From NCBI GenBank assembly GCA_945865805.1, contig CAMBGJ010000001.1, positions 1 to 48,284 of the forward strand: 48,284 nucleotides of DNA, in the 5' to 3' direction. Positions within the stretch are counted from its first letter, which is position 1; each line of letters opens with the position of its first letter. This document shows positions 1,592-47,361 of the stretch, piece after piece. The stretch is from Bordetella parapertussis. Its GTDB lineage: Bacteria > Pseudomonadota > Gammaproteobacteria > Burkholderiales > SG8-41. The notes beneath the pieces are model-generated. The model did not search any database. It saw only the letters and a program-made list of their open reading frames with translations, and was not told the DNA's origin. Both the position numbers and the translations under genes were made by a program.

Positions 1592-1611
1592 ATAAGTATT
1601 TGTTTTTATTG
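1592..1611 (-). repeat. AT-rich box copy 1 (reverse orientation)
   Basis: Reverse complement is CAATAAAAACAAATACTTAT. It lies between the ctpA stop and the terminator hairpin. Confidence 0.6.
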
Positions 1612-1612
1612 C

Positions 1613-3058
1613 TTAATTTCCGCCAGCCGTCGCGCCACGCGATTTCAGGAAGGCGATCGCCTGATTCAGTTCGTAATCTTTTTTCGACACTACCTGCCCC
1701 GCCTCGGGACGCAATTCTTTCGGATCAATTTCAGGCCGTGCTTCGGGCTCGAAATTGTATTTGGCGCGCGCGGCGGCGAGAGCCTTTACTTTTTCTAATT
1801 CTTTGCTGTCCTTGCTTTCCGGTGCGGCGGCGGGCTTGCCGTCATCCAGGTGCTTGCTCAAATCGGCTTCGCGCAAACGCAGGCTGGCGTTTTTGTCGAT
1901 GGCGCTTTCGAGCGGGATATCCGGCATGATGCCCTTGGCCTGGATCGAGCGACCGTTGGGCGTGTAATAACGCGCGGTGGTGAGTTTGATCGCGGTGTTG
2001 TTGCCGAGCGGCAATATGGTTTGCACCGAGCCCTTGCCGAAGGTTTGCTGGCCCATGATCACGGCGCGACCGTAATCCTGCAACGCACCGGCGACGATTT
2101 CTGACGCCGAGGCCGAACCGCCATTGACCAGCACCACCATCGGCAATTTCTTGATTTCCGGCGGCAGCTTGGCGAGATAATCCTGCCGGTTGCGTCCGCG
2201 CAGATAATGCTCGGGGCTGGCATTCAGGCGCATTTTCGAATCCTCGGCACGGCCATCGGTGTACACCACCAGCTTGCCCGACTCGATGAAGGTGGCGGTC
2301 ACTGCCACCGCGCTATTGAGCAAACCGCCCGGATCATTACGCAGATCAAGGATGATGCCTTTCATCGGGCCTTTGACATGCGCTTCAATGGCGTTGGCGA
2401 GCAGTTCGCCGGTGCCTTCCTGAAACTGCGTGACGCGGAAGTACGCATAGCCCGGCTCGAGCGTGGTGGCCTTCACACTTTGAATCTTGATTACCGCACG
2501 GGTGAGCGTGAGTTCAATCGGATTGGGTTCGCCCTTGCGCACGATGGTCAGACGGATCGGCGTGTTGGGGCGGCCACGCATTTGTTTGACGGCATCATTC
2601 AGCGTCATGCCCTTGACCGAGTTGTCATCGAGCTTGACGATGAGGTCACCCGCCATCACGCCCGCGCGCGAGGCCGGGGTGTCGTCGATCGGTGAGATCA
2701 CTTTGACGAAACCGTCTTCCATGCCGACTTCGATGCCCAGGCCGCCGAACTCGCCCTGCGTGCCGACCTGCATTTCCTTGAAGGCTTCCTGATCGAGATA
2801 TGCTGAGTGCGGATCAAGGCCCGTCAACATGCCATTGATGGCCTCGGTGATGAGTTTTTTGTCTTCGACGGGCTCGACGTAATCTTTCTTGACGCGACCG
2901 AACACCTCGGTGAACGCGCGCAGTTCTTCGATAGGCAGCGGCAAGGGCTGGCGTGCCGCGCTTTCGCGTTGCGCCACGGCCGAAAAATTAAGACTGATAG
3001 CCACGCCGATGACGATGCCGGCGATGATGAGGCCTACTTGCCCCAGTTTGTTACGCAT
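1613..3058 (-). CDS. ctpA: carboxy-terminal processing protease (S41 family, CtpA/Prc-like)
   Basis: 481 aa with an N-terminal TM/signal segment, a PDZ-like region (GGLGIEV...ISPIDDTPASRAGVMAGDLI) and the S41 catalytic region (VVLVNGGSASASEIVAGALQD...GKGSVQ). Confidence 0.9.
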   Translation of the reverse strand: MRNKLGQVGLIIAGIVIGVAISLNFSAVAQRESAARQPLPLPIEELRAFTEVFGRVKKDYVEPVEDKKLITEAINGMLTGLDPHSAYLDQEAFKEMQVGTQGEFGGLGIEVGMEDGFVKVISPIDDTPASRAGVMAGDLIVKLDDNSVKGMTLNDAVKQMRGRPNTPIRLTIVRKGEPNPIELTLTRAVIKIQSVKATTLEPGYAYFRVTQFQEGTGELLANAIEAHVKGPMKGIILDLRNDPGGLLNSAVAVTATFIESGKLVVYTDGRAEDSKMRLNASPEHYLRGRNRQDYLAKLPPEIKKLPMVVLVNGGSASASEIVAGALQDYGRAVIMGQQTFGKGSVQTILPLGNNTAIKLTTARYYTPNGRSIQAKGIMPDIPLESAIDKNASLRLREADLSKHLDDGKPAAAPESKDSKELEKVKALAAARAKYNFEPEARPEIDPKELRPEAGQVVSKKDYELNQAIAFLKSRGATAGGN

Positions 3059-3105
3059 GGACTGCTCCGGTTAACAACATGACCTACTTTACGTTCTTAC
3101 GTTCA

Positions 3106-45400: not shown

Positions 45401-45452
45401 GCCCCAAGCGTTACCGCCCACTGCTCCCCAGCCGTTTTTTTAAGGAGCTACT

Positions 45453-47324
45453 ATGAACGCCAATCCGCAATTTCTGAACACTGCCGCGCACGTTGATGAA
45501 GCCGCAGTCAAATCGCTGCCCAATTCGCGCAAGGTTTATATCGAAGGCTCGCGCCCCGACATCCGCGTGCCGATGCGCGAGATTTCGCAGTCGGATACGC
45601 CCGCTGGCATGGGCCACGAAAAAAATCCGCCGATTTTTGTCTATGACACCTCCGGGCCGTACACCGACCCGACGGTAAAAATCGACATCCGCTCCGGTCT
45701 CGCGCCGCTGCGCCAGCAATGGATCGAAGAGCGCAACGACACCGAGTTAATGAGTGGCCCGTCGTCGGACTACGGGCGTGAAAGGCTGGCCGACCCCAAG
45801 CTCGCCAGTCTGCGTTTTAACCTGCACCGCCAGCCGCGCCGCGCCAAAGCCGGCATGAACGTGTCGCAAATGCACTACGCGCGCAAAGGCATCATCACAC
45901 CCGAGATGGAATACATTGCCATTCGCGAAAATCAAAAATGCGAAGGCCTGATTGAGCTACTCACCAAGCAGCATCCCGGCCATAACTTCGGCGCGAGCAT
46001 CCCGAAGGCGATCACGCCTGAATTCGTGCGCGATGAAGTCGCCCGCGGCCGTGCGATTATCCCGATGAACATCAACCACCCGGAAATCGAGCCGATGATT
46101 ATCGGGCGCAATTTCCTGGTGAAAATCAATGCCAACATCGGCAACTCGGCACTGTCATCCGGCATACAGGAAGAAGTGGAAAAAATGACCTGGTCGATCC
46201 GCTGGGGCGGCGACACGGTGATGGATTTGTCCACCGGCAAACACATTCATGAGACGCGCGAGTGGATCATGCGCAATTCGCCGGTGCCCATCGGCACCGT
46301 GCCGATTTATCAGGCGTTGGAAAAAGTCGACGGCAAAGCCGAAGAACTCACCTGGGAAATCTATCGCGACACGCTGATCGAGCAATGCGAGCAGGGCGTC
46401 GATTATTTCACCGTACATGCGGGTGTGCGCCTGCCCTATATCCCGATGACCGCCAAGCGCATGACCGGCATTGTGTCGCGCGGCGGCTCGATCATGGCCA
46501 AGTGGTGCCTCGCGCATCACAAAGAGAGTTTCCTCTACACCCACTTTGAAGACATCTGCGAGCTGTTGAAGCAATACGACGTGTCGTTCTCCTTGGGCGA
46601 TGGCCTGCGTCCCGGCTCGATTTACGATGCCAACGACGAAGCGCAGTTGGCCGAACTGGCTACCTTGGGCGAACTCACGAAAATCGCCTGGAAGCACGAC
46701 GTGCAAACCATGATCGAAGGCCCGGGCCACGTACCCATGCACATGATCAAAGAGAACATGGATCTGCAATTGAAAATCTGCCACGAAGCGCCGTTCTACA
46801 CGCTGGGGCCGCTGACCACCGACATCGCGCCGGGCTACGATCACATCACCAGCGCCATAGGCGCAGCGATGATCGGCTGGTACGGCACGGCGATGCTGTG
46901 CTATGTGACGCCGAAAGAACATCTTGGCTTGCCGGACAAAGACGATGTCAAAGACGGCATCATGGCGTACAAGATTGCCGCGCACGCGGCTGATCTCGCC
47001 AAGGGTCACCCCGGCGCGCAGATCCGCGACAACGCCTTGTCGAAAGCGCGCTTTGAATTCCGCTGGGACGACCAGTTCAACCTCGGCCTCGATCCGGACA
47101 AAGCCAAGGAATTTCACGACGAAACCCTGCCACAGGATGGTGCCAAGCTCGCGCATTTCTGCTCGATGTGCGGCCCGCATTTTTGCTCGATGAAAATCAC
47201 GCAAGATGTGCGCGACTACGCGGCCAAGCAAGGTTTGGATGAAAAAGATGCTCTAGCCAAAGGCATGGAACAGAAATCGATCGAGTTTGTGAAAAAGGGT
47301 GCCGAGGTTTATCACAAGGTTTAG
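45453..47324 (+). CDS. thiC: phosphomethylpyrimidine synthase
   Basis: 623 aa with highly conserved ThiC blocks ([25 protein letters not shown], the C-terminal [11 protein letters not shown] Fe-S motif). Confidence 0.97.
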
Positions 47325-47341
47325 CGCCTCGCCTCGCTATC

Positions 47342-47361
47342 GTAAGTATTTGTTTTAATTG
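47342..47361 (-). repeat. AT-rich box copy 11 (reverse orientation)
   Basis: Reverse complement is CAATTAAAACAAATACTTAC. It ends 11 nt upstream of the ATG at 47373. No Shine-Dalgarno sequence is present. Confidence 0.6.

Follow-up and report, generated by a model that had tools for sequence, protein, structure and literature searches.

A recurrent AT-rich box resembling an integration host factor site in GC-rich genomes of one uncultured betaproteobacterial clade

The stretch of DNA analysed here, called the window throughout, comprises all 48,284 nucleotides from position 1 to 48,284 of contig CAMBGJ010000001.1 (assembly GCA_945865805.1, deposited as Bordetella parapertussis; Burkholderiales, SG8-41). 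It is an ordinary chromosomal locus with housekeeping genes such as ppk, argA, thiC with its thiamine pyrophosphate (TPP) riboswitch, secB and gpsA, as well as seven genes of the TctC/Bug type. The gene map and the Pfam labels were derived from many lake metagenome assemblies and from the metagenome-assembled genome GCA_947492615.1, all of which carry identical window proteins. The subject of this work is an AT-rich box that recurs mainly between these genes. An earlier note on this DNA had listed 11 copies, and all 11 were recovered where it had placed them. Anchored on their ...TTAY end, the copies align without gaps over 30 nt, with a consensus of approximately rAAAAATAATCAATWAAAACAAATACTTAY.

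An exact-consensus search allowing three mismatches recovered only two copies, and a position matrix was used instead. On their own matrix the 11 copies scored 38-49 bits (31-46 bits in a leave-one-out analysis). The next best site in the window did not exceed 22 bits, so that the scores form a bimodal distribution and few copies fall in between. In a scan of 200 first-order Markov surrogates of the window, the highest score was 21.5 bits, and none came to 25 bits. The GC content of the window is 60%, and 11 of its 17 AT-rich islands are boxes. With a length of 34-37 bp, the box occurs about once per 4.4 kb (every 4-5 kb), or approximately 230 times per Mb, which implies hundreds of copies per genome.

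The copies and the features attached to them are given below, with scores from the position matrix; L numbers denote sampled loci outside the window, and IHF stands for integration host factor.

1562-1582, reverse strand: intrinsic terminator hairpin, 9 nt after the box at 1592, with a 9-bp GC-rich stem and a T-run; no other convincing intrinsic terminator was seen in the 40 kb scanned.
1592-1621, reverse strand: box, 48.1 bits; the TAA stop codon of an S41 peptidase gene (1613-1615) coincides with box positions 7-9.
6481-6510, forward strand: box, 46.8 bits, with a perfect IHF core (AATCAAAAACTTA); a rhodanese gene stops inside the end of the A-tract, and a Shine-Dalgarno (SD) sequence and an ATG (6525) follow 14 nt downstream of the box.
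8993-9022, forward strand: box, 45.9 bits, 152 nt past the gpsA stop codon and 13 nt ahead of the ATG at 9036.
14421-14450, forward strand: box, 48.4 bits, 3 nt past the stop codon of a 2-hydroxyacid dehydrogenase gene; a TctC/Bug gene starts at box position 8 (ATG at 14428; N terminus MLLKQIL); orthologous copy at L165:6282.
17429-17458, forward strand: box, 45.7 bits; a TctC/Bug gene starts at box position 9 (ATG at 17437; N terminus MFKNKYL); orthologous copy at L197:1890.
18463-18492, forward strand: box, 47.6 bits, with a perfect IHF core (AATCAAATACTTA), 3 nt past the stop codon of the preceding TctC gene; the next TctC gene starts at box position 9 (ATG at 18471; N terminus MIKIKYL); orthologous copy at L197:2896.
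29958-29987, forward strand: box, 45.9 bits, 84 nt past the stop codon of an acyl-CoA dehydrogenase gene; its last two bases are the start of the ATG of a CoA-ligase gene (29986).
33321-33350, forward strand: box, 41.7 bits; the TAA of a HAD hydrolase gene (33322-33324) coincides with positions 2-4, and the next gene lies 115 nt downstream.
36446-36475, reverse strand: box, 39.4 bits, at a convergent gene end; the ppk stop codon (36468-36470) lies inside the box and the prpD stop codon 90 nt away on the other strand; no box follows ppk in the relatives L015 and L016.
38895-38924, reverse strand: divergent variant of the box, 16.1 bits, upstream of a yggX-like gene, with a poor A-tract and a perfect core (TATCAAATACTTA); orthologous copies in two other genera, L015 (37.7 bits) and L016 (a tandem pair).
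41624-41653, forward strand: box, 37.9 bits, antisense within the coding sequence of argA; its IHF core (AATCAATAACTTA) is perfect.
42728-42757, forward strand: weak box-like stretch, 11.7 bits, with the core AATCAGATACTTG, antisense within a variable loop of the 5-formyltetrahydrofolate (5-FTHF) cyclo-ligase coding sequence; missing from the L164 orthologue.
47342-47371, reverse strand: box, 49.3 bits, between the thiC stop codon (47324) and the ATG of a DUF4349 lipoprotein gene (47373), antisense to both; orthologous copy at L164:1344.

Two weaker copies had been listed in addition. The one at 38895-38924 is a real variant, its orthologous position being kept in relatives, and it carries an idiosyncratic CCTGTAATATCAA that is retained upstream of yggX in three genera. 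The stretch at 42728-42757 is doubtful as a box and at best an incipient one. In L016 (Betaproteobacteria bacterium UBA5216), two degenerate boxes lie head to tail at 9600-9660 upstream of the yggX-like gene, where the window and L015 have a single one. Between the genes for OEP and PCMT lies a further AT-rich island (44835-44864, forward strand, 10.8 bits), whose core (AATCAATGCTATA) is close to that of an IHF site, with one mismatch in TTR; it may be a decayed or nascent box. The kilobase 10001-11000, which harbours a DUF3298 gene on the reverse strand (10112-11011), has a GC content of 45% in the 60% GC window, which suggests recently acquired DNA; its AT-rich islands at 10467-10496 and 10601-10634 are not boxes.

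For an analysis of the genomic context, genes were called with a simple codon-usage gene finder trained on the window, and every box was classed. Boxes were present in 67 of 374 tandem (18%), 12 of 74 divergent (16%) and 18 of 71 convergent (25%) intergenic regions, and about 7% of the copies were located in coding sequence. In tandem regions, 37 copies are sense and 30 antisense. Within the window, ten of the 11 boxes lie between genes or overlap gene ends, the eleventh being the copy in argA, and none of the five divergent, promoter-bearing regions holds a box. Often the box makes up the complete spacer between two genes (30-40 nt between stop codons). Neighbouring genes stop in a TAA on the A-tract side or in a GTAA on the other strand at the TTAC side; alternatively, their start codons lie no more than a few bases from one end of the box or the other. 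Four window genes, those for the S41 peptidase, the rhodanese, the HAD hydrolase and Ppk, stop at a TAA supplied by the box. Thus, the suggested bias of the box toward gene boundaries stands as far as its intergenic location is concerned, whereas a bias toward gene starts was not found.

As the earlier note had pointed out, three Bug/TctC genes of the window start inside a box in different frames. Two frames are used, and the starts are kept in the orthologues. Among 11 in-box starts in the window and in L121, L136, L138, L165 and L197, ten belong to TctC-like genes, at box position 8 or 9, and the n-region encoded by the box reads MxKxKYL or MxLKQI[LF]. Two adjacent TctC paralogues show 66% DNA identity overall, and their boxes are identical at 24 of 30 positions (80%). 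Because of this paralogue identity and the concentration of in-box starts in TctC genes, we regard these starts as reflecting tolerance of the motif and not its purpose; the TctC/Bug genes would have taken the ATG and the lysine-rich (AAA-rich) codons of the box as the positively charged n-region of their signal peptides. It is also true that genes following a box lack an SD sequence, but this is not specific, since about half of the window genes have no SD-like motif, with or without a box ahead of them. For the DUF4349 gene, public annotations give 47529 as the start. Translation from the ATG at 47373, which is 2 nt away from the box, would begin with a lipoprotein-like signal peptide (MPRSQLNLVLLAVFLC). 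Since the relative L164 conserves this peptide, 47373 is probably the correct start.

Copies inside genes reveal how boxes come into being. The box in argA aligns codon for codon with the box-free argA genes of L015 and L016 without any indel; the substitutions change GCG CGC to ATT AAA (AR to IK) and TCC ACG CTG to AAT TCC TTA (STL to NSL). In L020, L021 and L022, an in-frame box is located inside the CHAD-domain gene downstream of ppk. Here, an arginine-rich helix of box-free relatives (RARRALRSPRYRRL) is replaced by a stretch of the same length rich in lysine, asparagine and isoleucine, again without an indel, and among the three loci the DNA motif is better conserved than the peptide. These indel-free alignments, together with the absence of conserved flanks, indicate from sequence comparison that boxes arise in place by substitution and not by insertion. 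Once present, they are retained: orthologues of the boxes at 14421, 17429, 18463 and 47342 were all found in contigs whose DNA is about 75% identical to that of the window. Differences between orthologous boxes are almost all A-to-T or T-to-A exchanges in the 5′ half, and the 3′ core is nearly invariant. The same locus in other samples was 99.6-99.95% identical, too close for a population-level test of selection.

To define the distribution of the box, the window ppk was compared with one genome per species, which yielded 80 betaproteobacterial loci (closest ppk 78% identical). Boxes were found only in the closest relatives (ppk 70-78% identical), with 9-10 boxes in 89 kb from six loci compared with 11 in 48 kb for the window. 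No box of at least 30 bits was detected in 1.30 Mb from the 74 more distant betaproteobacterial loci, including 0.96 Mb with a GC content of at least 55%. A scan of metagenome contigs with a degenerate pattern matched at least 120 loci. Among the 120 loci listed, 86 were GC-rich (0.53-0.67); they came from lakes, soils and rhizospheres, and many of the matched contigs carry further boxes beyond those selected by the pattern. As a control, the same pattern was applied to viral contigs, where only eight of 120 listed matches were GC-rich and the rest were mostly chance matches in AT-rich phage DNA. In the library of papers that was searched, neither the motif nor similar repeats were found. Taken together, the box is a real and constrained element at the DNA level that occurs in either orientation and in tandem, divergent and convergent regions alike, and is restricted to one lineage.

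A sequence logo was built from 49 + 90 copies, and 140 distinct copies from the window, relatives and metagenomes were available in total. The 5′ half of the logo reads A3 A4 A5 W W A8, with C or G at position 11, followed by W12 W13, T14, W, A16 A17 A18 and W19. The 3′ half reads C20 A21 A22 A23 T24 A25 S26 T27 T28 A29 Y30, positions 22-25 being mostly AATA, and ends in a weak AT-rich tail to about position 37. Information above background is confined to positions 1 to approximately 37, in agreement with the size of about 34 bp of an IHF site. Beyond -1 and +38, information drops below 0.15 bits per position in the flanks, and no inverted repeat, second arm, REP palindrome or target duplication was found in them.

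A canonical IHF site spans 34 bp and consists of WATCAA starting near the centre, TTR four bp further 3′ and two steps, usually AA, nine bp apart, at which prolines intercalate; some sites carry, in addition, a tract of 4-6 A in the 5′ half (PMC1874591). The IHF consensus WATCAANNNNTTR fits the box at a single register (positions 17-29) and at no other register or on the other strand. At this register, the match was perfect in 48 of 140 copies and involved no more than one mismatch in 133 of 140, a fit that counts as one test and not as 140 independent ones, because the metagenome pattern had fixed much of the core. In 300 column permutations, the best register gave at most 18 perfect matches and at most 86 with no more than one mismatch. 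The window copies show zero to two mismatches, the usual one being an A for T at core position 3. An exact core had been claimed for three copies, and this holds for those at 6481, 18463 and 41624.

The remaining elements of an IHF site were found as well. Positions 21-22 are AA in 129 of 140 copies. At positions 12-13, AA occurs in 84 and TT in 40 copies (124 of 140 together), AT and TA accounting for 11. This covariation is highly significant (Fisher p = 1e-22; 1.5e-16 without the copies containing start codons) and represents the strongest pairwise dependency in the box (mutual information 0.55 bits, next 0.24). It was not imposed by the search, since both positions were N in the pattern. 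The step at 12-13 sits 9 bp 5′ of the AA at 21-22, which is the spacing expected for two proline-intercalation steps. Within the A-tract, A is found at frequencies of 84% (A3), 88% (A4), 98% (A5) and 84% (A8), with W at positions 6 and 7, and 104 of 140 copies contain an uninterrupted run of four or more A within positions 1-10. Relative to the W at position 17, the A-tract runs from W-14 to W-9, the AA/TT step lies at W-5/W-4, WATCAA spans W to W+5 and TTR W+10 to W+12. The H′ site of phage lambda attP has the same register. With canonical sites of this type the box shares the four elements (PMC1874591), their spacing, the length of 34-35 bp, a single invariant C, a TTR that follows the core after four bases and an A-tract that precedes it by 14 nt. 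As judged from its sequence, the box is a predicted IHF site in which each feature of the canonical site can be recognized.

Since the box is found in both orientations and in all types of intergenic region, shows no common RNA fold and is not associated with an enrichment of promoters or terminators, a function on double-stranded DNA is indicated. We favour the reading that IHF, a heterodimeric protein that bends DNA, or a close relative from the HU/IHF family binds the box with high affinity, and that this site has been multiplied in one uncultured betaproteobacterial clade, and assign to this a probability of roughly 0.62. Four readings had been offered by the earlier note. A binding repeat for IHF or another nucleoid protein gained support as a prediction from the four elements, the H′ register, the covarying step and the length; a translation enhancer, a target of small RNAs and the terminus of a mobile element did not.

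IHF would bind the box and wrap its DNA into a U-turn. The boxes might thereby serve the architecture of the chromosome or punctuate gene boundaries between closely packed transcription units, and candidate roles include boundaries of domains or supercoils and roadblocks between tightly packed units where hairpin terminators are few. Such tight packing would be reflected in the flanking genes that end in box-supplied stop codons, TAA in the A-tract and GTAA on the other strand. In a genome with 60% GC, sites of this kind would hardly occur by chance, so that only maintained, that is selected, sites would exist. This absence of chance sites may explain why a sharp repeat family is seen rather than a continuum as in E. 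coli. Doubtful, in our view, is the further idea that IHF-bound boxes replace hairpin terminators as bidirectional punctuation between tightly packed genes.

Besides the fact that the core match amounts to a single test, several observations weigh against IHF as the binding protein. In approximately 60-67% of the copies, the third consensus position is A instead of T (AAACAA for AATCAA), and T14, A16 and A23-A25 are strongly conserved although they lie outside the E. coli consensus; in both respects the predicted site differs from a canonical one. Because these non-consensus positions are also conserved, the specificity of the protein may be narrower than or different from that of IHF. Nearly all Proteobacteria have IHF, whereas the box occurs in a single clade, and a lineage-specific factor must therefore explain its expansion. 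A site inside argA or the CHAD-domain gene is not an obvious expectation of selection for architecture. The window alone is biased, with eight sense copies to one antisense in tandem regions, compared with 29:29 outside it. Finally, tblastn with E. coli IhfA and IhfB gave no match in the sampled loci, a result that is uninformative as these loci represent a tiny part of the genome.

Dispersed IHF sites occur in other bacteria. The RIP/RIB elements of E. coli (BIME-1) consist of an IHF site between two REP palindromes; they are dispersed in either orientation and have no firmly established function. Like the box, they are found between convergent genes or between the genes of an operon. Unlike them, the box has neither REP palindromes nor any other conserved flank, the single nearby hairpin, that next to the box at 1592, being an ordinary terminator. 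The box also differs in that it arises by substitution in place, is much denser (about 230 per Mb), overlaps start and stop codons and occurs occasionally in coding sequence. In contrast to the isolated IHF sites of regulation and recombination, it is present in hundreds of near-identical copies per genome. The Correia elements of Neisseria are miniature inverted-repeat transposable elements (MITEs) of 100-155 bp with a central IHF site, terminal inverted repeats and a TA target duplication. They resemble the box as abundant intergenic repeats with an IHF consensus in a betaproteobacterium, but the inverted repeats and the insertion footprint of a MITE or insertion sequence are absent from the box.

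The conserved positions outside the E. coli IHF consensus, the frequent A at core position 3 and the restriction to one lineage would also be compatible with a site for another clade-specific AT-binding or DNA-bending protein, for example a nucleation site for an H-NS/MvaT-like silencer, a protein of the Fis or Lrp type or an mTERF-like terminator, in which case the likeness to an IHF site would be partial. That the boxes make up nearly all AT-rich islands of the window would fit such a protein. We nevertheless consider it unlikely, given that all four IHF elements, including the covarying ApA/TpT step, are found in the exact H′ register. A single invariant C in an A/T motif and an asymmetric extent of 34-37 bp are not known as features of H-NS, Fis or Lrp motifs.

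Alternatively, the box could be a DNA uptake signal, that is, a self-DNA tag and then a third, independently evolved family, which in a freshwater and soil clade resembling Burkholderiales would have spread by molecular drive wherever it was tolerated. Copies would accumulate through biased uptake and recombination, and the IHF-like anatomy would reflect a receptor with an IHF/HU fold or the need for sharply bendable DNA. The high copy number (one per 4.4 kb), both orientations, a motif common to related genera and bimodal scores with few intermediate copies agree with this idea. The origin of copies by point substitution in variable protein parts (argA, the CHAD-domain gene, the loop of the FTHF ligase) is even explained better by it than by simple selection. 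Uptake sequences are described as arising by point mutation in tolerant coding regions (PMC2817400). The uptake signal sequences of Pasteurellaceae and the DNA uptake sequences of Neisseriaceae share with the box high copy number, both orientations, a family-wide motif and an origin by point mutation. Over-representation, occurrence in both orientations, origin by point mutation and family-wide distribution are, however, necessary and not specific features of uptake sequences. Unlike the short GC-containing cores of known uptake sequences, the core of the box is AT-rich and IHF-like, and the copies are almost entirely intergenic, with the small coding fraction given above. Moreover, the match to the IHF consensus, which was reached in 0 of 300 permutations, and the AA/TT covariation would have to be a coincidence, and we regard an uptake signal as quite improbable.

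The sense orientation of eight of nine tandem window copies, and the many copies that contain a start codon or end 0-15 nt ahead of one, would be expected of an unstructured A/U-rich RNA element, which might act as an S1-dependent enhancer of SD-independent initiation or re-initiation, or as a shared target of small RNAs and Hfq. In line with this, the box regions fold weakly, with minimum free energies of -1 to -13 kcal/mol versus -19 ± 6 kcal/mol for random 67-nt windows. The folds are inconsistent, however, and no common structure was found. In the wider sample the orientation is nearly balanced (37:30), the highest rate of boxes is that at convergent gene ends, and one copy lies antisense inside argA. 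Genes lacking an SD-like motif are common regardless of boxes, and a need for unstructured A/U does not explain C20, the TTA or the AA/TT covariation. An Rfam scan of the window yielded only the TPP riboswitch (RF00059, 69.6 bits) and no match at the boxes, and a tRNA scan likewise gave nothing at the boxes. This riboswitch is located at 45304-45403 on the forward strand, directly upstream of thiC (45453-47324). We thus attribute little probability to an RNA-level function in either of the two forms suggested earlier.

Very improbable is a role as promoter or UP element for sigma-70 or an alternative sigma factor, possibly for leaderless transcripts. The box is AT-rich and often located just upstream of start codons, and two of the 11 boxes overlap weak promoter-like matches (9 of 12 positions; 14418-14447 and 29957-29984). 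However, with TTA invariant at 27-29 and positions 24-26 variable, the box does not conform to a -10 hexamer, and the distance from box to start codon ranges from -23 to more than +100 nt. Boxes are found in convergent regions and as whole spacers of 30-40 nt between stop codons, and the five divergent, promoter-containing regions of the window are all free of them. Promoter-like matches were not enriched in the window either (4 and 3, versus 7.5 and 6.3 in shuffled sequences). Likewise, matches to a hairpin-terminator consensus were no more frequent in the scanned 40 kb than in shuffled sequence.

Remnants or termini of small mobile elements (MITE or insertion sequence ends, solo inverted repeats), to which a dispersed family in both orientations and two box halves within a 35-nt inverted repeat at L013:17136-17337, outside the window, might point, are largely refuted: the flanks hold no conserved sequence, second arm or target duplication, the argA and CHAD-domain boxes align with box-free orthologues without an indel, orthologous copies keep lineage idiosyncrasies such as that upstream of yggX, and the extra sequence of the L013 arms is not repeated elsewhere. 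The L013 locus, from the same species and about 6 kb past the end of the window, is an observation in its own right. Its arms (17136-17170 and 17303-17337) are 89% complementary and 132 nt apart, with a third box at 17077, and each consists of the 3′ half of a box plus GTTAAGTAAGTGCCATTCG; the arrangement resembles a MITE with IHF-type sites near its ends. As GTTAAGTAAGTGCCATTCG did not occur again in the sampled DNA, we regard it as a local oddity.

Among the remaining genes of the window, a gene for a eukaryotic-type Ser/Thr protein kinase with faint EF-hand matches is located at 23546-25156 on the reverse strand, adjoining an LVIVD-repeat gene and two TctC genes.

Besides its possible function, the box is of use for annotation, as it marks gene boundaries and helps to correct gene starts, such as that of the DUF4349 gene at 47373 and the in-box starts of TctC genes, and it may serve as a lineage marker in metagenomes. 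IHF sites have usually been studied singly, at a promoter, an origin or a recombination site, and in E. coli they form a fuzzy continuum against an AT-rich background. Here, a GC-rich genome appears to hold clean and discrete full-consensus putative IHF sites every 4-5 kb or so. They persist at orthologous positions, and substitutions have created them even where amino acids had to change. If IHF indeed binds them, the clade would offer a natural system in which to study what purpose strong DNA U-turns serve when arrayed along a whole chromosome. Candidate roles would then include domain boundaries, the insulation of transcription units and hairpin-free termination, and the selective cost of each site would become measurable.

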